Shown piece after piece: positions 3,618 to 38,333 of a stretch of DNA of 38,333 nucleotides; positions within the stretch are counted from its first letter, which is position 1; every line of letters starts with the position of its first letter. The notes below the pieces were generated by a model. The model ran no database searches. It was not told where the DNA came from and saw only the letters and a program-made list of their open reading frames with translations. Made by a program: the position numbers and the translations under genes. This DNA is from a virus: positions 1-38,333 of IMG/VR virus record IMGVR_UViG_3300009960_000009. One strand, 5' to 3'.

Positions 3618-5873
3618 CTATTTTTTAGAACTTAGCTTGAATATGATTTTCATATTGCCTAAGAATGCCGTGATAGCTCCAGCAACAGCAAATATCTCAG
3701 TAATTCGGCTAGGAATAAACACCGACGTGACAACAGCTACCATACCTGCTAACGCAATACCAATGTCTGTAACAAAGTAAACCTTGTCTTTTACTTGCGT
3801 TGAGATTGTCGGCGAGTATTCAGTGTCGCCTACTTGTTTGTTAATATTTTCTTGAAATTTTTCTAGCTGAGCCATTTGCTCCTCCGTTAGTATTAATGGT
3901 TTATTACCTATTTCAGCTGGTTTTTCCACTTCACCGCTCCCATCTTTAGGCTTTTGCTCAGATTGCCCATTTCCTGGCTCTGCAGGAGGCGTTACATCTT
4001 GAGATGGCTGATTATTCGTCTCAGGTTGCTTCTGCGGCTCCTGCGAACTCTCAGGCTGCTCGTTTTTTGGCGCTTCTACCTGCTTTTTGAGCGGCTGAGG
4101 AGTTCCTGCATCATTTTCGCTGATTTCAGTCATCGGCTCTACGTCAATCCAGCAGTCCATGCCGCCAATATGAAGTTTTGCCATCCACTGCTCGCTTGTA
4201 TCGCTCTTGCCTAAATCAAGTACGCGATATTTACCAGGGATTTTGAATAGCTCGCCGACATTCAAGTCTTGGTCTGGTGTAGCGTAGCTTGCGCGGTCTA
4301 CCTCGACTAGCGGCTCTACTGGTACGCCATTATCTGACCACGTAAAGTCTTGCTTGCACAAAGTATTGCTACGAACTTGCCAAACGCCATCAACTATTTG
4401 CATGTCGTCCACCTGATAAATCCCATCGAACCTCACCCAGCTACCAACTTCAAGGTCTTGATCGACTGGATTATTTGGCGCAACTGGCGCTGGAGGATTA
4501 GAGCTACCGCCTCTGTAACGAAATACGCGCAGTTGCTTTACGCCAGCAGCGCTAGCAAAGGCGTCGTGGTTATTAACGCTCATACCGTAGCTAAAATTAC
4601 AATGAACGATATCGTTAGGGTTGATAAATATGCCTGTGTGAGCTCCGCCGCCTGGCGTCGTCCAATCTCCAGAGATTAGCCAGAGGAAAATGTCGCCGCG
4701 CTGAGCATCAATCGTGCCGTTAGCGTCGGCTGGTATTTCAGAAAACCCGTGAGCTGGCAGGTCGCTAAACATCCGTCCAGTCCAGCCAATCGGCGTACTA
4801 GGCGGGAGGATGCCGGCTGCTTTTAAAGCGTGATAGACTGCACTCGAGCAGTTACCGGTGATAAAAGGTGTGCCGTTGACACGTGCAACTATATATGTGC
4901 TCTCTACTGAGATACATGACACCATAGTCTCGCGAGTAGAGATTTTCTGGCCAAGGCTATAGCTTGGATTAGTATAGTAAGTCAACACATAGTAATCTGA
5001 GTAATTCTCGCTCCGGTTATCAACTATTTTTCGTTGTGTTGATTTGACGCCGTTGACAGTAAATACAGCCTGAACAGTATCTACATCTTTTTTATTTGTA
5101 GAGCCAAATAGCTTTCTTGCGCCGTAATCCGTGCCGTCCCACTTGTACAGCTCGTGGAAGAATACATCGAACTTATGTTCGTCGATGTTCACCCAGTCTT
5201 CTGTAAACGATTTGTCTTTCAGATACTTCTCTGCGAAATTATCAATAATGGTATTGTCATCAATCGTTATCTGAGCAGTATCATCCTTTAACTCATCGTA
5301 AATAGTGTATGTTAGGCCAATACTCTCTAATAGGTCGAGGAGCCTATTAATTTTCCTCTTCTTGCTGAGGTGAAAATGAACACGTGTTGTGTTGCCAGAT
5401 ATCTTTTTGTAGTGGCCGTCGGCTTGAATCGCCACAAGCAGCTTAAACTCATCATCAGATAGGTCATTCAGCGCTGTGTACGGCTTGTCCATAGTAGTCA
5501 TATCTGGCGTGATAACAGAATAGCTGTCCTTAATGTCACCCCATAACGCTTCTCGAATATAGTTTGTCTTCTTAGTGCGATACAGTACTCGGTGGCTATC
5601 AGTCGCTTCAAAGTCTCCACGGCGTGTGACTTCTGCCATATATGGCTCAACAACGTTCATGACCTTTGTTGGAGACAATTTGTTGGTTTTGACGTCATAT
5701 TGCACCACATCGTCGCCAACTGCGAACTCGCTCAGAGGTTTCCAGCCTGTCGGTGTAAGAAGTTCTGTACTGTCTAATGGCAGGCAGTCGTAACTCTCTG
5801 GTCCATTCCTATTCTCCATCGAGTAGCTAACTTTACCGACACGAGATAACATCCAGTTGATCGCTTGTTCCAT
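3618..5873 (-). CDS. Intein-containing NlpC/P60-CHAP-type cysteine peptidoglycan endopeptidase. It also carries an SH3b-like module, a Pro/Gln/Glu-rich linker and two C-terminal TM helices. Likely a virion-associated lysin or endolysin.
   Basis: Spliced extein reads ...NRNGPESYD|CSSAVYHALKAAGILPP...GDIFLWL...GGGAHTGIFINPNDIVHCN, a Cys/His NlpC-P60 signature. C-terminus IGIALAGMVAVVTSVFIP...IFAVAGAITAFLG is hydrophobic. AAGGAGAGG RBS. Confidence 0.8.
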   Translation of the reverse strand: MEQAINWMLSRVGKVSYSMENRNGPESYDCLPLDSTELLTPTGWKPLSEFAVGDDVVQYDVKTNKLSPTKVMNVVEPYMAEVTRRGDFEATDSHRVLYRTKKTNYIREALWGDIKDSYSVITPDMTTMDKPYTALNDLSDDEFKLLVAIQADGHYKKISGNTTRVHFHLSKKRKINRLLDLLESIGLTYTIYDELKDDTAQITIDDNTIIDNFAEKYLKDKSFTEDWVNIDEHKFDVFFHELYKWDGTDYGARKLFGSTNKKDVDTVQAVFTVNGVKSTQRKIVDNRSENYSDYYVLTYYTNPSYSLGQKISTRETMVSCISVESTYIVARVNGTPFITGNCSSAVYHALKAAGILPPSTPIGWTGRMFSDLPAHGFSEIPADANGTIDAQRGDIFLWLISGDWTTPGGGAHTGIFINPNDIVHCNFSYGMSVNNHDAFASAAGVKQLRVFRYRGGSSNPPAPVAPNNPVDQDLEVGSWVRFDGIYQVDDMQIVDGVWQVRSNTLCKQDFTWSDNGVPVEPLVEVDRASYATPDQDLNVGELFKIPGKYRVLDLGKSDTSEQWMAKLHIGGMDCWIDVEPMTEISENDAGTPQPLKKQVEAPKNEQPESSQEPQKQPETNNQPSQDVTPPAEPGNGQSEQKPKDGSGEVEKPAEIGNKPLILTEEQMAQLEKFQENINKQVGDTEYSPTISTQVKDKVYFVTDIGIALAGMVAVVTSVFIPSRITEIFAVAGAITAFLGNMKIIFKLSSKK
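4851..5786 (-). mobile_element. Intein (~312 aa, residues 30-341 of the lysin) with a LAGLIDADG-type homing-endonuclease core. It is inserted immediately before the catalytic Cys of the NlpC/P60 domain.
   Basis: Block A is CLPLDSTELLTPTGWKPLSEFAVGDDVV (Cys1 codon 5784..5786). Block B is EATDSHRVL (TxxH). The endonuclease motif is FKLLVAIQADGHYKK. C-terminal block ...YIVARVNGTPFITGN precedes +1 Cys (Asn codon 4851..4853, +1 Cys TGC 4848..4850). The penultimate residue is Gly, not His. Confidence 0.75.
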
Positions 5874-14835: not shown

Positions 14836-15108
14836 ATGTTTAGAAATATCAACAAATCTAAGAATGAAAATCTCAACGTAATCTACAAATCAGACGAGGC
14901 TACTCGTCGTGCTATCGACGCTCTATACGTATCGAAGCGCAATCGTACTAAAGCAGTAATAGCTGCTACGGTTATATCGCTACTACTTGGTCTAGTAGCT
15001 GGAACATTAATCGGCACGAAGGTACTTAGCAAAGCTATTGATAGCAAGTCTACTGTACGCGTTGAGGTATCTGATTCTTTAAAAGCAAAGGTCCAGCCAA
15101 GCAAATAA
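14836..15108 (+). CDS. Small membrane protein (one TM helix).
   Basis: AIAATVISLLLGLVAGTLIG hydrophobic segment. Conserved translation-initiation element upstream. Confidence 0.55.
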   Translation: MFRNINKSKNENLNVIYKSDEATRRAIDALYVSKRNRTKAVIAATVISLLLGLVAGTLIGTKVLSKAIDSKSTVRVEVSDSLKAKVQPSK

Positions 15109-15135
15109 AGCAAGCGGGGGCGATAGCACAGGTTG
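15108..15135. terminator. GC-rich hairpin GGGGGCGA-(12-nt loop)-TCGCCCCC. Possible terminator; a T-rich tract is present only on the minus-strand side.
   Basis: Perfect 8-bp G/C stem immediately after the stop of 14836..15108. Confidence 0.4.
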
Positions 15136-15158
15136 TCGCCCCCCCCTCACCAAAGCCT

Positions 15159-15476
15159 TTGACTAATTGCGAGATAGTCAAAGCTGAGGTTGCTAAGTAT
15201 TCTGGCTGGAACATTGGTATCATGACCGCAATAAGCAAGGCTGAGAGTGGCTGCCGATTAAACGCTCGTGGTGATAATCATTTAACTTTTCAGCAAAACG
15301 GTCGAACCTACGGTTATAGCCTAGGTCCTTTGCAGGTACGAATTTTGCCAGGGCGCGAGCACTGCGATACTCTAGATACTTCGATACTAGTGCGATGCGC
15401 GTATGATATCTATAAGAGTCAAGGCTACAGAGCATGGTCAGTTTATTTAAACGGTAGTTATGCGCGCTTTTTATAA
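15159..15476 (+). CDS. Rpf/transglycosylase-like (lysozyme-fold) small protein. Start uncertain: TTG at 15159 or internal ATG at 15222.
   Basis: AISKAESGCRLNARGDN...GYSLGPLQVRI...SQGYRAWSVY resembles the transglycosylase-like CESGG / GLFQI / ...G.AW motifs. Confidence 0.5.
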   Translation: MTNCEIVKAEVAKYSGWNIGIMTAISKAESGCRLNARGDNHLTFQQNGRTYGYSLGPLQVRILPGREHCDTLDTSILVRCAYDIYKSQGYRAWSVYLNGSYARFL

Positions 15477-15793
15477 AAGATAATCAAGTCGTCGTGGTCG
15501 TCGTCTGGCAGGTCAAAATTATAGGCATAATCTGCTACAGCTTCGTTAGGCTTAACTAGATCCTCGTCTTGTAGAATTTGAAACGAGGCACGCGCAGCAA
15601 ATGCTGTGTATGATTGCCTAATCAAATCGCAAATCAGTTTGCGAGCATCTTTAGAAATCTCGCTATCTTTAATATTTCGGACGGCAAAGTCCATGCCTAC
15701 GCTCAAATTCAAAATGTCGCAGATAATGTCTGCCTGCTGGTTCTTGACTCGTAAAGTCTGAAAATCTGATAAATCATTGCTGTTCTGGCTCAT
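15458..15793 (-). CDS. Hypothetical acidic protein, in an operon with GroES/EL.
   Basis: ORF. Overlaps 15774..16028 by 20 nt (coupled). Confidence 0.45.
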   Translation of the reverse strand: MSQNSNDLSDFQTLRVKNQQADIICDILNLSVGMDFAVRNIKDSEISKDARKLICDLIRQSYTAFAARASFQILQDEDLVKPNEAVADYAYNFDLPDDDHDDLIIFYKKRA

Positions 15794-16028
15794 TTTCGCC
15801 CTCCTCTTCTATAAAGCCATAATTTTTCGCATCATCTGGGAAATAATCTATAAAATCTTGATTGGAAGAGCCATCGCGGTTGTATGGTTGTATCAGGTTG
15901 TGAGCATGCGCTTCAGCTTGACGCTCGAGAACAAATTGCTCGTGGATTCCAGCTACAGTAGTGTCTGTCTGCTGCTGAGCGTCAGGCTTGCTGTTTCGAT
16001 AGTAAACTCCATTTTTTATGTAGCCCAT
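15774..16028 (-). CDS. Hypothetical acidic protein.
   Basis: ORF downstream of GroEL. Confidence 0.4.
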   Translation of the reverse strand: MGYIKNGVYYRNSKPDAQQQTDTTVAGIHEQFVLERQAEAHAHNLIQPYNRDGSSNQDFIDYFPDDAKNYGFIEEEGENEPEQQ

Positions 16029-16102
16029 TTTAATCGAGATAGCCGTACGATTGGCCCTCCTTTAGTTTTTTTCTATTTTCGTAACGATAAATAGCATATC
16101 TA

Positions 16103-17539
16103 TTACACATCTTCGACAAACGGCAGCGCTAGTTTAACTGATAGTAGCTGCGCGGCTGCTGAGTGCGAGTTAATCACTGCCTCTTCAATAGCTTTTGCGC
16201 TGTCTACAATACCAGCTTCTACTACATCTACAGTCTCGCCAGTTTCGATATTGGTGCCGGTATTATCTTTAAAGACTGAATCGCTGGCTGAGCGGTTAGT
16301 TAGTAGTTCGAAAGGTTTTTTGAAATAATCGAGTTCTAATTTTTTCAAGAATACGCCACCGCCTGGCAAAACGCCATAGTCAAAGGCGGTGCGAGCTGCG
16401 CAAACAGCATCTTCAATGCGAAGTTTTAGTTCTTGACGCTCAGCTTGAGTTGGCGCACCGACAGAAATTCGTACGGTTTTGCCGAGCAAACGCTCGCGAC
16501 GTTCGGTCGAATCAACGCTTTTAGCATATTCAGCTAATGAATCTGGGGAGGTACAACCTGTCAGTGTGGTTTCTGTCAATGAGATAAAAGCAGAATTTAC
16601 AGTGCCTACGTATTCTTCAACGTCAAAATCATCGGCGTTACCAGTATACTGCTCTGTCGATGCGTATTTGGCTATGTCGTTCAAGAACGCGTCGCGGTCT
16701 AATGCGATTGGCTCAACAATAGCAATATCTAAATTACCTTTAAGTTTATTAGCCACGATAGTCTCTAATGCTTGGCCAGATACGTCGGCAACTAACAAAA
16801 TAGGCGATTTATCAGCGCGCAAGCATTTGTCAAGGATAGGCAAGATATCTTCACTTTTAGAAATAAGTTTTGGCAAAACGATGATGGCTGGGTTGTCATA
16901 CTGAGTACGCAGCGTCTGTAGATTGTCTGCTAATGCTGGCACTCGTAATCCCTTTTTAAAAGTAAACCCGTTAATCGTTTCAGACGATATCTGATTTTCT
17001 GGAGTTTCGACAACAGCGACGCTGCCGAGCTTACCGACGCTCGACACCGCATCTGCTACCATCTCACCGATAGCTGTATCGCCAGCAGAAATTACTGAGA
17101 CATGGCGCAGCAGTTCGTCGTTACATTCTAGCTTTTCTGCTTCAATTTTTTTCAGCACTTCGGCCACCGTCTGATTAATACGGCGCTGAGCTTCACGCGG
17201 CGTCAGGTCTTGTCTGCGCCAGTAATCGTACGCCAATTTCGTGAGCACGATTGTGAGCGTTGTAGAATCGCCAGCATTTCGATTAGTTCGCTCGCTAGCT
17301 TGTCTAACCACTGAAATAACCGAATTTTCGATTGAATCTTCTATAACTAAGTTTTTGACGTTAGTGATGCCGTCGTGCGAAATTAACGGCTCGCCAAAAC
17401 GCGGCTCAATCATGACGTTGCCAGAGTTAGCGCCGTATGAGGCCAACGCGACCTCGCAAATCGCGTTAACACCATTTTCAACAGACTTCTGGATTTTTTC
17501 GCCAGAAACGATTTTTCTGATTAAATTACGCTTTGGCAT
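16103..17539 (-). CDS. groL: Phage-encoded GroEL-family chaperonin (Cpn60), 478 aa. It lacks the GGM tail.
   Basis: NAGDSTTLTIVLTKLA resembles the GroEL AGDGTTTATVL motif. IEDAVCAARTAFDYGVLPGGGVFL resembles [23 protein letters not shown]. C-terminal AAAQLLSVKLAL. Confidence 0.8.
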   Translation of the reverse strand: MPKRNLIRKIVSGEKIQKSVENGVNAICEVALASYGANSGNVMIEPRFGEPLISHDGITNVKNLVIEDSIENSVISVVRQASERTNRNAGDSTTLTIVLTKLAYDYWRRQDLTPREAQRRINQTVAEVLKKIEAEKLECNDELLRHVSVISAGDTAIGEMVADAVSSVGKLGSVAVVETPENQISSETINGFTFKKGLRVPALADNLQTLRTQYDNPAIIVLPKLISKSEDILPILDKCLRADKSPILLVADVSGQALETIVANKLKGNLDIAIVEPIALDRDAFLNDIAKYASTEQYTGNADDFDVEEYVGTVNSAFISLTETTLTGCTSPDSLAEYAKSVDSTERRERLLGKTVRISVGAPTQAERQELKLRIEDAVCAARTAFDYGVLPGGGVFLKKLELDYFKKPFELLTNRSASDSVFKDNTGTNIETGETVDVVEAGIVDSAKAIEEAVINSHSAAAQLLSVKLALPFVEDV

Positions 17540-17813
17540 CGAAACCTCGCAATTCTTTTAATGGCAAAAATACATACTCGTCGTCGCCAATTTTGATTGG
17601 CTCGCCTTCATTAAACGGCTCGAAATAAACAGTTTTGCCAACTGCCATATCATACGAATACATTGCTTTTAATTCTGTATCTTTACCTGTTTTGAAGTCA
17701 ATCATAACACCGCAACTTCGCCGTTCAAATCTCTGCTTTTCGCTGGACAGTCCCGAAGCATATTTCTTTTCGAGCCGTATAAGCGCGTAACCTGGTAATG
17801 GCTTCAAATTCAT
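17526..17813 (-). CDS. groS: GroES-like co-chaperonin (Cpn10).
   Basis: MNLKPLPGYALIRLEK... VGKTVYFEPFNEGEPIKIGDDEYVFLPLKELRGF has the GroES pattern. 14-nt overlap with groL. Conserved translation-initiation element upstream. Confidence 0.7.
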   Translation of the reverse strand: MNLKPLPGYALIRLEKKYASGLSSEKQRFERRSCGVMIDFKTGKDTELKAMYSYDMAVGKTVYFEPFNEGEPIKIGDDEYVFLPLKELRGFDAKA

Positions 17814-17871
17814 TTTTTATAGCCCTTTCTTTTATTACTCTACCTCTATAATATCATACTTTTGAACAAAT

Positions 17872-17901
17872 AAAAATAGCCCCCGTGTCTAGGCTATTTT
17901 T
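17872..17901. terminator. Bidirectional rho-independent terminator: AAAAATAGCC-(10 nt)-GGCTATTTTT.
   Basis: Perfect 10-bp stem flanked by an A-run on one side and a T-run on the other, between minus-strand gene 17987..18478 and groS. Confidence 0.7.
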
Positions 17902-17986
17902 ATGTGAAACATAGGGAACATCCAAGGTAGTCGAGAAAAAGAAAGGGTTAGTTTCATAAACTCGACCACCCCTATTCTAGCACATC

Positions 17987-18478
17987 TCAGGCAGAAATAA
18001 AAGCCCAGAAATATGCGTTTGCTGAAACGGCGACTTCTGCAGTACCAATCACTTTGGTAGCTCCAGTTTTAACACCGCAGAACTGGTTTTGATTAATTTT
18101 AACTGCGGTGCCTTTAGGAAATGGAGCGTCTAGGTGATCGCTGAGTGACACTACACCAGATTTTGTTAGACCATCAACCAGATACTGAGCTTTGTCGACA
18201 AGAGCGATTCCGTCTTCATAGACATCTGGATTCGACGGACCAGCAGCTAAGGTCAACATGCCATCACCGACTTTAGCGTCATCTTTAGTTGTCGATGAGT
18301 GCGCTGGTGCGGCAGCAGCTTCGACTGTAGCGCCTGCTGCAAGAGCAGTGCCACCATTTTTAGCATAACGATAAATGCGTCCGTCTGCTGTTCGTGCAAT
18401 TTGCCCGAGCACACCTTGTTTGTCAGTAGTGACTTCATGCAGCTGTGTTGCTGTTAGGGTTTGATTTACGCTTCCCAT
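17987..18478 (-). CDS. Hypothetical Ala-rich protein.
   Basis: ORF with AAAGGA RBS 8 nt upstream. Followed by the terminator. Confidence 0.5.
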   Translation of the reverse strand: MGSVNQTLTATQLHEVTTDKQGVLGQIARTADGRIYRYAKNGGTALAAGATVEAAAAPAHSSTTKDDAKVGDGMLTLAAGPSNPDVYEDGIALVDKAQYLVDGLTKSGVVSLSDHLDAPFPKGTAVKINQNQFCGVKTGATKVIGTAEVAVSANAYFWAFISA

Positions 18479-18680
18479 GTGAAAATCCTTTCGTTATTTT
18501 TACAACTTAATTTTACAGTATTTTGACTTGCTTGTGTTGAATTTGTTCAATGATATTGCTATGTTTATTTCTGTGAGATAATTAGATAAAAATTGAACGA
18601 CGAAATGAGCCAGACAGGATTATCTCACACAATTTTCAATTTTTTCTGGCTGGCTTTTTTCGTGGAATAGGGAGTACTTA

Positions 18681-19430
18681 ATGTACGATTTTGAAAATCA
18701 GCAAGTGGTTGAGCCACCTCGTCAATTTACTGGTGTCTGGATACCAAAAGAAATATTGTTAAACGATAGGTTAACTGGCGCTGAAAAAATACTGTACGCC
18801 GAAATTGCTAGCTTTGGCGATAAAGGCTGTTGGAAGAAATCCGAAGAACTAATGTCGCTTACTGGTGTTAGAACTTCTACTTTTCAGGCTTCGTGTCGCA
18901 AATTAGTGTCTCTTGGCTATATCACTCAAAAACGACAATACGGCAGAATGGTCAGATGGTCTAATTTAGGGTTTAGTACTAACCAAAATACAAGCTGTTC
19001 ATCAACGTATAATTCACATCAACGTAAAAATCAACGGGATGTACCCGTTAAAAATCAACGGGATGTACCCGTTAAAAATCAACGCGTTCATAAAGATAAC
19101 ACAAAAGATAACACAAAAGATAACACAGTCTATGAACGCGAGCGTTCAGGTCGTGCTGACGATGAGGTTGCAAGATTGTACTACCAAGTAGTTAAAGCTC
19201 TATCGTTACCAGTGACTAACCACAACGTTTTAAGAGCTAAAATTGCTGAGATGAAAAAAACTTATCAAGAGAACGTCTGTATCGATTATCTGACATTTAT
19301 GCGCGACAACTACGCTTCATGGCAAACTCGTTACAAACCGCAAATCAACAACGCGCTTGATATCTATGCGAAGTCGATGCAAATTATGAGACGATTGAAA
19401 GACGATCAACAGAAACAGGAGGTGTTCTAA
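18681..19430 (+). CDS. Replication initiator / replisome-organiser-like protein (N-terminal winged helix) with an internal iteron-encoded peptide repeat.
   Basis: FTGVWIPKEILLNDRLTGAEKILYAEIASFGDKGCWKKSEELMSLTGVRTSTFQASCRKLVSLGYI has the DnaD / phage Rep winged-helix pattern. The central region reads KNQRDVPVKNQRDVPVKNQR...KDNTKDNTKDNT. Confidence 0.6.
   Translation: MYDFENQQVVEPPRQFTGVWIPKEILLNDRLTGAEKILYAEIASFGDKGCWKKSEELMSLTGVRTSTFQASCRKLVSLGYITQKRQYGRMVRWSNLGFSTNQNTSCSSTYNSHQRKNQRDVPVKNQRDVPVKNQRVHKDNTKDNTKDNTVYERERSGRADDEVARLYYQVVKALSLPVTNHNVLRAKIAEMKKTYQENVCIDYLTFMRDNYASWQTRYKPQINNALDIYAKSMQIMRRLKDDQQKQEVF
19017..19126. repeat. Candidate replication-origin iterons inside the rep gene. 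A 24-bp unit AAAAATCAACGGGATGTACCCGTT occurs twice, each with the palindrome AACGGG-ATGTA-CCCGTT, followed by a degenerate third copy that contains a different palindrome (AACGCGTT). AAAGATAACAC then occurs three times.
   Basis: Exact tandem repeats at 19026..19049, 19050..19073, 19074..19090 and 19091..19123. Confidence 0.6.
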
Positions 19431-19432
19431 AA

Positions 19433-19726
19433 ATGTTCGAGATTACAACTTATGATGGCGAGGTTTATCAAATCATTCAAAACGATCCAAAACGCATTGC
19501 CGAGTTGGCTCATCGGCTGGACCTCGTTCCAGTGCGTCTAGTAGGCGGAGAAGTGCGTTATTTTGCAAAAGGCAATGTTAGTAGCATTTCTTATCGAAAA
19601 ACGCAGCAGGAGGCACTAGACGACGCGAGAGAGGCTATTGCGAAAGACAAGCAATCACGAAATGATGCTGAGACCACTAAATTAGCCGAAAACAGCCAAA
19701 AAAGACTGGAGAAAAGCAATGATTAA
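19433..19726 (+). CDS. Hypothetical protein.
   Basis: ORF tightly packed after rep. Confidence 0.45.
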   Translation: MFEITTYDGEVYQIIQNDPKRIAELAHRLDLVPVRLVGGEVRYFAKGNVSSISYRKTQQEALDDAREAIAKDKQSRNDAETTKLAENSQKRLEKSND

Positions 19727-19991
19727 TACAAACGAAGCTAAACGATGGCAATGGCTAGTGCGTGTTCTCGATCCAAAAAATTCAATCGACAAAAAAGCAA
19801 TTGACCATTTGAACGCTGGGTTCTGTTACTACCTGCTAGCACCACCATCAGCTATGCAAAAATTCTACATTGTTGGTTACAAACATTTTGGCGGACCGAT
19901 TCCTTACTATGCTGAGCCAGCAGATGAATTGCAATCCAAACGCTTAGATGAATTAGATACCACTAGATATTACGCCACAAGCTTATTGTAG
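19719..19991 (+). CDS. Hypothetical protein.
   Basis: ORF with an 8-nt overlap to the previous gene. Confidence 0.45.
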   Translation: MINTNEAKRWQWLVRVLDPKNSIDKKAIDHLNAGFCYYLLAPPSAMQKFYIVGYKHFGGPIPYYAEPADELQSKRLDELDTTRYYATSLL

Positions 19992-20044
19992 ACAAAATAC
20001 ACCTCTGTTGTTCAGAAAATAATAAGCAGCTAACCATAAAACTA

Positions 20045-20073
20045 TTGACATTGTTATAACGCTTTGCTACAAT
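20045..20073 (+). promoter_or_regulatory. Sigma70 promoter: -35 TTGACA, 17 nt, -10 TACAAT.
   Basis: ctaTTGACAttgttataacgctttgcTACAATgaaa, then the AATAAAAGAAAGGGTTAAGATG element. Confidence 0.65.
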
Positions 20074-20103
20074 GAAAATATCATCAATAAAAGAAAGGGT
20101 TAA

Positions 20104-20371
20104 GATGACAATTACAAAAATACCAGTTCATAGAAAAGCGGCATTTATCGTCGTTCATGTTGGCGAGCCAGTGAAAGATAAAACCTTCGGCGGTAATAAA
20201 TTTCGCGAAGTGAAATTTATTAGTAAGGACGGCAAACTTCTAAAAGTCTCGCTATACGACAGTAGATTCGACGACCTGAAAGGCATTCTTGTTGAAGAGA
20301 ATGTCGTTGAACTCGATTACAATACTGAACTAAAAAGCATCCATACGATAAACGGACACAGGTGGAATTAA
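20104..20371 (+). CDS. Hypothetical protein. The start is refined to the ATG after the conserved element (the track start at 20072 is upstream).
   Basis: MTITKIPVHRK... preceded by AAAGAAAGGG. Confidence 0.5.
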
Positions 20372-20417
20372 GATGACGCAAGTAGTATTTGACCGAGCTT
20401 TGTCGAGGGAGGCCTAG

Positions 20418-21188
20418 ATGGAAAAACCTATTGAAAATGTTGACCACTGGTCATACTCATCGGCCAAAAACATCTACCACAGCGGCATTGATTACGCTGT
20501 CGGGTTGAAGCTTGGACTGATTGAGAAAACCTACAGCAAGGCTGTAGACATTGGCAAATTAGCACACGCACACCTACTTGGCGGCGAACAAGAGTTTGTG
20601 GTCAAGCAATATCCAGACTATCGCACGAAAGAGGCGAGAGACTGGCGTGATGCACAGACTCTACCAATCATTGACGAAGCCGAGTTTGAAACGATTTGCA
20701 CAATCGCCGAGCGAATTAAAAGCCATCCGCTGGCAAATCAGCTGGTGCTTGGCAAGAACGCTCGCCACGAAATACCACTTAAAGCAAAAATCGAGGGCAA
20801 AGACTGGGTTGGTCGAGCTGACGTCGTTGGCGTCCAGGACGATGAAATCAAGTATTGTCTCGATGTCAAAACCACTGCTAGGTTCGACGACTTCAAGTGG
20901 GAAGCACGCCGAATGGACTATGACCTGCAGGCAGCACTCTATTCACTGATCGCCGAGTGCGAGAGTAAAGAGTTCTTCTGGGTCGTGGCCGAGACGGTCG
21001 CACCGTACCGCGTTGGTGTCGCAACAGCATCGCCAGAGTTTATCGATAGCGGCTTTGTAAAGCTAGAGCGAATCGTTAGCGAAATCAAACGCTTTGATAA
21101 ACGAGCTGGCAAGACAGACCTCGAAAAGGTCAACTTTAACATAAACGAAACCATGGACGACATCCTTGTTCTTGGAGATTGGAGCTAA
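20418..21188 (+). CDS. PD-(D/E)xK exonuclease (YqaJ / lambda-Exo-like), the partner of RecT.
   Basis: ...GRADVVGVQDDEIKYCLDVKT has the D...D/E.K signature. It lies directly upstream of, and overlaps, recT. Confidence 0.6.
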   Translation: MEKPIENVDHWSYSSAKNIYHSGIDYAVGLKLGLIEKTYSKAVDIGKLAHAHLLGGEQEFVVKQYPDYRTKEARDWRDAQTLPIIDEAEFETICTIAERIKSHPLANQLVLGKNARHEIPLKAKIEGKDWVGRADVVGVQDDEIKYCLDVKTTARFDDFKWEARRMDYDLQAALYSLIAECESKEFFWVVAETVAPYRVGVATASPEFIDSGFVKLERIVSEIKRFDKRAGKTDLEKVNFNINETMDDILVLGDWS

Positions 21189-21958
21189 TAGTGACAGAGA
21201 CAGCTATTCAAAAAACAAGCAACACACCGCTGACCTTACAGCAATTAGTAAAGTCTGACGCGATTATGAAGTCGGCTGAGCGTACGCTTGGCGAAAAAGG
21301 CAGGCAGTTTCTGACAAGCGTGCTAGCACTAGCGAACAGCAGTCCAGCAATCGCCAAATGCGACCCGATGACAACATACAACGCTTGTCTGACAGCAGCG
21401 ACATTAGACTTGCCAGTCAATCAAAACCTAGGTTTTGCCTACATCGTGCCATACGCTGGCAAGGCTCAATTCCAGATGGGCTGGCGCGGATTTGTGCAGT
21501 TAGCGATGAAGACAGGTCAATTTAAAAGTTTAGGAACTAGAGCTGTTTACGAAAGCGAGCTGGTTGGCGTCGATTCGTTTACTGGTGAGCCAGAGTTTAA
21601 CTTTAATATTGAGAAAGGTGGTAAGATTATCGGCTATATGGCGTATTTCGTGCTACTGAACGGTTTTCGCAAAGCTGAGTTTATGACTAACGACGAGCTT
21701 GAGAAACATGCGAAGCGATATTCAAAAACCTATAAAAGTGGCGGCGGCGTTTGGAAAGATAATTTTGACGCAATGGCGAAAAAGACAGTGCTCAAATTAC
21801 TGTTGGGACGTTACGCGCCACTAAGCATTGAAATGAAAACAGCGATTATTGAGGATCAGAAAGCCGGTGGCGAGTATGTCGATAATAAGCCAGGCTCGTC
21901 GCTAGAAGTCGAAGATGCTGAGGTAATTTTAGAGGAAGACAATGGCAGCAATAAATAA
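21179..21958 (+). CDS. recT: RecT-family single-strand annealing protein.
   Basis: GFAYIVPYAGKAQFQMGWRGFVQLAMKTGQ is the RecT core motif. Confidence 0.75.
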   Translation: MELIVTETAIQKTSNTPLTLQQLVKSDAIMKSAERTLGEKGRQFLTSVLALANSSPAIAKCDPMTTYNACLTAATLDLPVNQNLGFAYIVPYAGKAQFQMGWRGFVQLAMKTGQFKSLGTRAVYESELVGVDSFTGEPEFNFNIEKGGKIIGYMAYFVLLNGFRKAEFMTNDELEKHAKRYSKTYKSGGGVWKDNFDAMAKKTVLKLLLGRYAPLSIEMKTAIIEDQKAGGEYVDNKPGSSLEVEDAEVILEEDNGSNK

Positions 21959-22400
21959 CGTAACCTTAATCGGTCGCGTCGTCCGAGATATTGAAGTCAA
22001 AACGACGAACAGCGGCAAGTCCATAGCCTCATTCGCCTTAGCGGTTGACGGCTACGGCAAAGATGCCGACGCTAGTTTCATCGATTGTGTTGCCTGGAAT
22101 AAAGCTGCCGAGCTACTGGCAGAGTATGCACCAAAAGGCAAGCAAATTGGCATAACTGGCAGATTGCAAACGAGAATCTGGGAAAAGGACGACATCAAGC
22201 GTAAAGCCACTGAAGTCATCATCGACCAGTTCCAGTTCTTGAGTAACGCCAAGGGCAGCGGCAATAACACTGCGCCGGCTACTGAGCGATACGCCGAAGA
22301 TGATGCCAAAGCGGCAAATACAACAACTAACCAAGCAACGAAAACAACCGAGGATATCGACCTCGACGCGCCGATTGATTTGAGTGAAATACCATTTTAA
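21942..22400 (+). CDS. ssb: Single-stranded DNA-binding protein.
   Basis: OB-fold N-terminus (VTLIGRVVRDIEVKTT..G). Acidic tail DIDLDAPIDLSEIPF, the SSB C-terminal D-I-P-F type. Confidence 0.75.
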   Translation: MAAINNVTLIGRVVRDIEVKTTNSGKSIASFALAVDGYGKDADASFIDCVAWNKAAELLAEYAPKGKQIGITGRLQTRIWEKDDIKRKATEVIIDQFQFLSNAKGSGNNTAPATERYAEDDAKAANTTTNQATKTTEDIDLDAPIDLSEIPF

Positions 22401-38211: not shown

Positions 38212-38333
38212 ATTATACATTCTCATTCCACGCCTGAGCCGTGCCGTTTTGGGTTTCTTGCCAAACTTGACCCATGCCGTTCGTATTCTCATTCCACGCC
38301 TGAGCCGTGCCGTTTTGGGTTTCTTGCCAAACT
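38212..38333 (-). CDS. C-terminal segment of the same wrap-around tail-fibre ORF. Its stop TAA lies at ~38212..38214, immediately upstream of the RBS AAGGAG of gene 37314..38189.
   Basis: The minus-strand reading of 38212..38230 gives ...A W N E N V * followed by ttgagttAAGGAGaacaagagatATG. Confidence 0.65.
38219..38333. repeat. Right-hand copy of the terminal direct repeat (circular-assembly overlap or terminal redundancy).
   Basis: Same sequence as 1..115 (attctcattccacgcctgagccgtgccgttttgggtttcttgccaaact, spacer, repeated). Confidence 0.85.

Follow-up and report, generated by a model that had tools for sequence, protein, structure and literature searches.

A candidate GroES–GroEL chaperonin system in a 38 kb phage genome

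Introduction

Can a phage with a genome of some 38 kb possess a chaperonin of its own, complete with a lid, and how might so compact a machine work? The question is raised by the IMG/VR virus record IMGVR_UViG_3300009960_000009, which was analysed over its positions 1 to 38,333 (the window; 38,333 nucleotides). The minus strand of the window carries two overlapping open reading frames (ORFs) between positions 16103 and 17813, which an original prediction made from the sequence alone had described as a phage-encoded GroES–GroEL operon. Most known chaperonin pairs of phages come from marine viromes and large phages; the present pair takes up ~4.5% of a 38 kb genome. The profile searches, family alignments and structure models described below suggest that the two genes very probably constitute a phage-owned group I chaperonin system, comprising a GroEL-type ATPase and a GroES-type lid.

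Identity and predicted fold of the GroEL-like protein

The larger ORF (16103..17539, minus strand) encodes a short GroEL-like chaperonin (Cpn60) of 478 residues and 52 kDa, as assigned with Pfam, PHROG, hhalign and AlphaFold2 (AF2). Both of the GroEL motifs quoted in the original prediction (AGDSTTL and IEDAV..ART....GVLPGGG) are present, the first as NAGDSTTLT at residues 88–96 and the second as IEDAVCAARTAFDYGVLPGGGV at residues 375–396. The protein lies inside the family to which it had been assigned, with a score of 112.1 bits against Pfam Cpn60_TCP1 (PF00118; gathering cut-off 34.3 bits) and a match to phrog_5725, 'chaperonin groEL', with an E-value of 1.2e-103. Its best relative of solved structure is the GroEL of T. 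thermophilus (187 bits); the match to phage EL gp146 is weak and partial (67 bits, residues 10–228). When a profile of 21 relatives was compared with one of 23 cellular GroELs using hhalign, the two aligned with a probability of 100% (E = 9e-73) over 473 columns. On this sequence evidence, the 478-residue protein is a divergent member of the Cpn60/GroEL family and is not an equivalog of cellular GroEL.

The AF2 model of the protein, computed with 116 sequences, predicts the equatorial–intermediate–apical three-domain fold, with all three domains confidently modelled (predicted local distance difference test score, pLDDT, of 88.3). A Foldseek search with this model gave template-modelling (TM) scores of 0.82–0.88 to apo/trans GroEL chains, for example 2cgt_H and 4ki8_A.

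To assess residue conservation, E. coli GroEL and 94 family members were aligned with MAFFT, and the E. coli numbering is used for conserved positions throughout. The equivalents of D52, G53, D87, T89, D398, G414 and D495 are kept in all 94 relatives, and four further ATP-site residues are nearly invariant (T90 in 91, S151 in 91, G415 in 92 and G416 in 93 of the sequences). The catalytic residues do not change even though identity within the family drops from 98% to 32%. The original prediction had named loss of the ATP-binding residues as a sign against it; these residues are instead kept across the family (in 91–94 of the 94 sequences). The apical groove formed by helices H and I is also recognizable, with L259 present in 94 of 94 sequences and positions 234, 237 and 263 remaining aliphatic.

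The overlapping GroES-like lid

The smaller ORF (17526..17813, minus strand) encodes a GroES-like co-chaperonin (Cpn10) of 95 residues and 11 kDa, for which the assignment draws on Pfam, PHROG, hhalign and AF2/Foldseek. The last 14 nt of this ORF overlap the GroEL start. The arrangement is a general one, in that an ORF of 80–110 residues overlaps or abuts the GroEL start in ~70 related loci, which are nearly all of them. The lid protein matches phrog_3188 (E = 1.4e-5), and seven of 24 diverse lid relatives match Cpn10 at E ≤ 0.01. A profile built from the lid family aligns with E. coli GroES over 89 of 95 residues (hhalign probability 95.3%, E = 2.4e-8).

The AF2 model of the lid is a β-barrel (pLDDT 82) with a helix predicted at residues 48–57 in the region of the roof hairpin and a disordered segment at residues 19–29 (pLDDT < 50), which is where the mobile loop is expected. 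When the model was compared with the PDB using Foldseek, the top 28 matches were all GroES, Cpn10, Cpn20 or gp31 structures, with TM scores of up to 0.67 (1p3h_A) and with T4 gp31 at rank 18. Where E. coli has G-I-V-L (G24-I25-V26-L27) in the mobile loop, the window protein reads G-L-S-S and the motif of 121 relatives is S-[FL]-S-[TS]-E. Polar mobile-loop substitutions have been described in 23% of viral GroES sequences, as has the replacement of the loop glycine by Ser or Asn (PMC5649160). The GroES pattern that had been noted in the overlapping ORF is borne out by Pfam (marginally), by the hhalign result and by the predicted fold; judged by sequence and model together, the 95-residue protein is a divergent Cpn10/GroES.

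Phage genome, lineage and probable host

The window is a complete phage genome, as it has an exact 115 bp direct terminal repeat (1–115 and 38219–38333) together with genes for the large terminase (TerL), portal and tail. The repeat marks it as a circularly assembled genome of ~38.2 kb. The window ends (1–115 and 38219–38333) also have an internal periodicity of ~66 nt. TerL, the portal, the tail proteins and a lysin-like protein are all encoded on the minus strand.

The nearest deposited genome is that of TM7 phage DolZOral124_53_65 (MG269973.1), which is circular with a length of 38,840 bp and has been assigned to a TM7/Saccharibacteria host. Amino-acid identities to this phage are 64% for GroEL, 50% for the lid, 73% for TerL and 67% for the portal. 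A megablast search of the region against deposited phages returned zero nucleotide matches, so that the relatives are found at the protein level only. In IMG/VR, 77 loci with a short GroEL were found, the majority on contigs of 36–43 kb, and the GroES–GroEL pair is kept together in ~70 related viral loci, again mostly of 36–43 kb. The protein database holds ~98 cluster representatives of the short GroEL, with lengths of 476–517 residues; beneath these clusters there is a gap, and the next sequences are cellular GroELs at ~29% identity.

Among species-representative genomes, relatives occur on mostly phage-sized contigs that were binned with metagenome-assembled genomes (MAGs) of Saccharibacteria (four), Atopobium/Atopobiaceae (three) and Prevotella (one). 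The host is likely to belong to the Saccharibacteria (TM7), although the MAG binning is ambiguous. The 71 kb contig of the Prevotella MAG (JAFTFC010000001.1; L084/L085) carries two copies of the short GroEL ~40 kb apart and is probably a concatemeric assembly of a ~40 kb phage genome that was binned into a bacterial MAG.

GroEL homologues are scarce in deposited phage genomes, being found in 205 of 50,697 records. The complete genomes listed among the 205 are nearly all of at least 60 kb, and the only ones of the present size are the TM7 phage (38.8 kb) and MW202497 (42.9 kb). The view that full chaperonin pairs are rare at ~38 kb is fair for deposited genomes, but it does not hold for metagenomic contigs.

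Proposed function and alternative explanations

The GroES stop overlaps the GroEL start, so that the two proteins would be translated as a coupled pair. In the proposed mechanism, the GroEL-like subunits would form a heptameric ring, the apical groove of which would bind non-native phage proteins. Binding of ATP and of the phage lid would then enclose the client, and hydrolysis, involving D377, the D398 equivalent, would time its release. For some protein that folds with difficulty, the phage would in this way no longer need the host chaperonin. A virion protein is the most plausible client, as the gene cassette to which the pair belongs is led by a putative structural gene, p163.

Several observations weigh against assigning the two genes to a phage-owned chaperonin. 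With ~210 bits against the NCBIfam GroEL models (212 bits for TIGR02348, the equivalog cut-off of which is 582), the GroEL-like protein falls beneath all of the equivalog and subfamily cut-offs (352–582). Pocket positions are changed family-wide relative to cellular GroEL (T91L, P33A/V, G35S, R36G, L31Y and G88S/A), and the allosteric residues E386 and E257 are both replaced by Gln across the family. As for the lid, its score against Pfam Cpn10 (PF00166) is marginal, at 22.1 bits compared with a cut-off of 21.1, a single-sequence search of the PDB gave no significant match (E = 0.06–0.17), and of the hydrophobic tripeptide in the mobile loop only the first residue remains.

Scores beneath the equivalog cut-offs and unusual pocket substitutions such as T91L, together with the loss of ~70 residues that include equatorial helices and the tail, might indicate that the GroEL-like protein has degenerated, no longer acts as a catalyst and serves as a structural or scaffolding component. 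This explanation is very improbable: the residues for catalysis and phosphate binding are all invariant among 94 sequences whose identity drops to 32%, and the model retains all three domains with confidence. Less far-fetched, although still unlikely, is a division of labour in which the 95-residue protein serves as a lid for the host GroEL, as T4 gp31 does, while the phage GroEL works without a lid in the manner of EL gp146. The presence of T4 gp31 among the structural matches of the lid and the degenerate mobile-loop tripeptide would both fit such an arrangement, as would the finding that the characterized EL gp146 does not bind GroES (PMC7185714). However, EL gp146 is distant from the present family, with a match of 67 bits that is only partial, and the lid and GroEL genes are coupled in translation and have been inherited together across the whole lineage. 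Moreover, two features are specific to the family, namely S-[GS]-[LF]-S-[TS]-E as the loop motif and the changed apical residues that would contact the lid (Y199L/I, Y203A, F204L and V264A/S); together they suggest that the interface has co-adapted.

It could also be asked whether the operon is phage-borne at all, or is instead a host groESL operon on a bacterial or misassembled contig, given that MAGs of Saccharibacteria, Atopobium and Prevotella include contigs that carry relatives. We regard a cellular origin as scarcely credible. The MAG contigs are mostly of ~38–40 kb and hence phage-sized, the window combines its 115 bp terminal repeat with TerL, portal, tail and recombination genes, and the closest record is a circular 38.8 kb phage genome, whereas identity to any cellular GroEL found is ~29% at most. 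A phage-owned GroEL-type ATPase acting with its own GroES-type lid accordingly remains the reading that we prefer.

Shortening of the GroEL-like protein and the ring interface

The GroEL-like protein is 70 residues shorter than E. coli GroEL and stops at about E. coli position 527. As the original prediction had remarked, the protein is short and ends before the Gly-Met (GGM) tail, which is absent; all 94 relatives are likewise of 476–517 residues. According to the profile and HMMER alignments, the missing segments comprise three residues at ~107–109, 19 at ~424–442, eight within ~459–468 and ~14 around 349–362, in addition to a few single gaps and the whole of the Gly-Met tail. The deletions at ~107–109, ~424–442 and ~459–468 take out A109, E434/D435, E461, S463 and V464, and the equivalent of R452 is a glutamate in the window protein (E411). 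Judged by alignment only, the contacts for a back-to-back double ring (K105/A109/E434–D435 and R452/E461/S463/V464) are thus not retained.

In GroEL, the inter-ring contacts are reported to be K105–D435 and E461–R452, and the laboratory single-ring GroEL (SR) is the quadruple variant R452A/E461A/S463A/V464A (PMC5575113). All four SR positions are altered here, since R452 is replaced (E411) and E461, S463 and V464 are deleted. GroES is trapped by the single-ring GroEL of E. coli, which gains function only once the GroES I25 contact has been weakened; in mitochondrial Hsp60 the same salt bridges are absent, and Hsp10 is bound weakly (PMC5575113).

The deletion or substitution of both inter-ring contact segments, the loss of the Gly-Met tail and a lid with one anchor suggest a single-ring cycle. 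On this view, the weakened mobile-loop anchor would allow the lid to come off with no second ring to signal its release. We tentatively propose, while considering it somewhat doubtful, that the clade represents a natural minimal single-ring, lid-dependent group I chaperonin, perhaps one that is also controlled by an upstream RNA hairpin with a loop resembling an anti-Shine–Dalgarno (anti-SD) sequence.

The spacer upstream of GroES

The spacer between p163 and GroES (17814–17986, minus strand) has a layout that is conserved in 11 of 15 related genomes. An extended −10-like element, TGCTAGAAT (17982–17974), lies just past the p163 stop and is followed by a first hairpin (hairpin 1), a terminator hairpin, a second extended −10 element and the Shine–Dalgarno (SD) region of GroES. 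Hairpin 1 (17924..17972, minus strand) has the stem GGGGTGGTCGAG/CTCGACTACCTT and a loop that contains the conserved CCCUUUCUU, folds with a z-score of −3.9 and is found in 11 of the 15 genomes. Its stems differ among lineages yet remain paired, while the loop always contains YCCUUUCU(U), which resembles the 3′ tail of 16S rRNA, i.e. the anti-SD sequence.

The loop sequence CCCUUUCUU is complementary to the SD region of GroES (AAAGAAAGGG; 17823..17832, minus strand), which was read from the sequence. This complementarity is perfect over 8–11 nt in seven of 11 genomes, a length reached by 0–1 of 500 shuffles, but extends over only 4–5 nt in the other four. A specific co-variation of the hairpin 1 loop with the GroES SD was considered and is unsupported, as these four of the 11 genomes pair poorly; the loop may simply be anti-SD-like. 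From its sequence, hairpin 1 could act by sequestering the SD in cis, in the manner of an RNA thermometer, or could belong to a small RNA of ~95 nt. A search against Rfam gave no match at the gathering threshold in the whole window and none at E ≤ 1 in the p163–GroES spacer, and for CIRCE, the operator that HrcA recognizes in bacterial groESL operons, there was no match with up to three mismatches allowed.

The terminator hairpin of the spacer is intrinsic-terminator-like, consisting of TAAAAATAGCCT-N8-GGGCTATTTTTA followed by a T-run (17871..17902, minus strand; between p163 and GroES). Of 14 relatives, 13 have a hairpin with a T-run at the equivalent place, the sequences of the stems being unrelated. 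This terminator (17902..17871) belongs to the upstream gene p163 and not to GroES–GroEL. A consensus scan of 15000–19000 gave signals that were not above those of shuffled sequences (five promoter-like matches compared with 8.1 expected, and four terminator-like matches compared with 4.3); it missed the hairpin at 17902..17871 on account of its loop length, and the signals were re-scanned by script. Neither the consensus scan nor the scripted re-scan found anything terminator-like after GroEL or p111.

The second extended −10 promoter-like element, TGATATTAT (17848..17856, minus strand), is a consensus match only. In 12 of 15 genomes, an element of the form TGnTAnnnT precedes the GroES start by 30–45 nt, which makes a promoter for GroES–GroEL plausible on sequence grounds. 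The original prediction that the operon has both a terminator and a promoter of its own therefore stands for the promoter, as a plausible element, and falls for the terminator, the only convincing hairpin being upstream of GroES.

The gene cassette and its neighbours

The chaperonin genes form part of a leftward cassette, p163–GroES–GroEL–p84–p111, that runs from 18478 down to 15458. The cassette diverges from the rightward replication module (18681–22400, plus strand), in which a replication initiator, an exonuclease, RecT and SSB were annotated among the window ORFs, and it converges on a rightward lysozyme-like gene. The divergent intergenic region between the cassette and the replication initiator (18479..18680) contains one weak σ70-like match (18577..18550, minus strand). 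The pair had been placed inside the early arm of the genome, and this placement could not be upheld: the cassette lies on the opposite strand to the replication module and diverges from it, and the family of its first gene matches a virion structural PHROG.

This first gene, p163 (17987..18478, minus strand), encodes a putative virion structural protein on the basis of PHROG. Six of 13 family members match phrog_26298, 'virion structural protein' (best E = 8e-8), and p163 is found directly upstream of GroES in 42 related loci. A profile search of p163 against the PDB gave no match. The protein is rich in Ala and Gly, and one relative (L014) has a version of 234 residues with a different C-terminal half.

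As had been noted, GroEL is followed by two small ORFs encoding acidic proteins, p84, with an isoelectric point (pI) of 4.40, and p111, with a pI of 4.49. The p84 gene (15774..16028, minus strand) is conserved downstream of GroEL, with tblastn matches in 61 of 78 related loci that include the most distant clade, in which GroEL is just 33–35% identical. The protein has the conserved motif H-x-H-[DE]-LIQP-[YH]-NPDG-x-PN-x-[DE]-FI-x-YYP-xx-AK-x-YGF. Searches against Pfam, PHROG and the PDB gave no match to p84, and a family profile fared no better. Exhaustive searching with HMMER found only 34 clusters among 1.84 billion representatives, all of them small stand-alone proteins; two long matches, P0244 and P0261, were rejected as repeat artefacts. 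The last gene of the cassette, p111 (15458..15793, minus strand; from the ORF list), is conserved in 12 close relatives only. A role of p84 or p111 as a co-factor or client of the chaperonin is possible. The end of p111 is overlapped by 19 nt by an ORF for a lysozyme-like protein of 105 residues (15159–15476, plus strand), the position of which is conserved in 47 related loci.

Between GroEL and p84, alignment with the nearest relatives (L004 and L007) revealed an 11-codon remnant of a small ORF (16062..16097, minus strand). Compared with these relatives, the window has a clean deletion of 247 bp with a junction at ~16084–16088 and flanking TCGT microhomology. The ORF lost in this way is of ~100 residues with a hydrophobic N-terminus (MLFIVFTIGIMLAYQ...), and most related genomes that were examined carry it between GroEL and p84; its intact version in the TM7 phage is CQ476_28. 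Elsewhere, in the structural arm, a protein of 751 residues (3618–5873, minus strand) has partial PHROG matches to PhoH-like, amidase/endolysin and Sak4-like proteins, and may be a multi-domain virion-associated lysin.

Comparison with known systems

The pair is not a new kind of system, as phage GroES–GroEL operons are established and the Cpn60 of a relative has been in GenBank since 2017. Phage-encoded pairs in the order GroES–GroEL have already been documented in virioplankton (Marine et al., 2017; PMC5649160). These marine operons share with the present one the canonical gene order and lids that are often polar at loop positions 2 and 3, with Ser or Asn in place of the loop glycine and a roof that is variable or missing. 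They differ, in a comparison made by description only, in being on marine contigs, some with small heat-shock protein genes upstream (PMC5649160). Marine et al. make no mention of inter-ring contacts or of a shortened equatorial domain (PMC5649160), and a search of the literature on chaperonins of Saccharibacteria/TM7 phages found no description of a GroES–GroEL pair. In the literature searched, we could not find a description of the lid gene of the TM7 phage group, of the conserved equatorial truncation at the ring–ring interface or of the upstream RNA architecture.

The closest known system is that of TM7 phage DolZOral124_53_65, in which the cassette has the same order: a gene for a protein of 164 residues, the lid (CQ476_26), GroEL (CQ476_27) and small ORFs. 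The window differs from it by the absence of the ~100-residue gene between GroEL and p84, owing to the 247 bp deletion. The TM7 phage record annotates the Cpn60, whereas the lid CQ476_26 is listed as a 'hypothetical protein'. The pair is kept throughout a lineage linked to the Saccharibacteria, the genomes of which are very reduced, and this argues that the phage cannot rely on host folding for some essential protein.

In common with E. coli GroEL/GroES, the phage pair has the predicted three-domain fold, ATP-site residues and apical H/I groove, and a lid with a segment that resembles the mobile loop. It differs from the E. coli pair in its low identity (~25%), in the substitutions of R452 by Glu and of E386 and E257 by Gln, in the lid loop (L-S-S compared with I-V-L) and in the predicted roof helix. 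The resemblance to T4 gp31 and RB49 CocO lies in a phage lid of the GroES fold with an altered roof (PMC5649160); the T4 lid, however, works with the host GroEL in a phage that has no GroEL of its own, whereas here a cognate GroEL adjoins the lid. EL gp146, OBP gp246 and AR9 gp228 are phage GroEL homologues that populate single rings (PMC7185714; in part PMC9598537). These three belong to giant or jumbo phages and lack a co-chaperonin, whereas the present system keeps a lid, and EL gp146 has 558 residues in its solved structure compared with 478 here.

The combination of SR GroEL with a weakened GroES and the mitochondrial Hsp60/Hsp10 pair are alike to the phage pair in that the four SR positions are altered, the K105–D435 region is deleted and the lid anchor is weakened, although this is a resemblance of sequence only (PMC5575113). 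The compact 52 kDa and 11 kDa family is a natural experiment on the long-standing question of single-ring cycling by machines of the GroEL/GroES type. If such cycling proves to be true, the family would lend itself as a minimal system to studies of structure and mechanism, and it would be the phage counterpart of the engineered single ring of E. coli and of what is debated for mitochondrial Hsp60/Hsp10.

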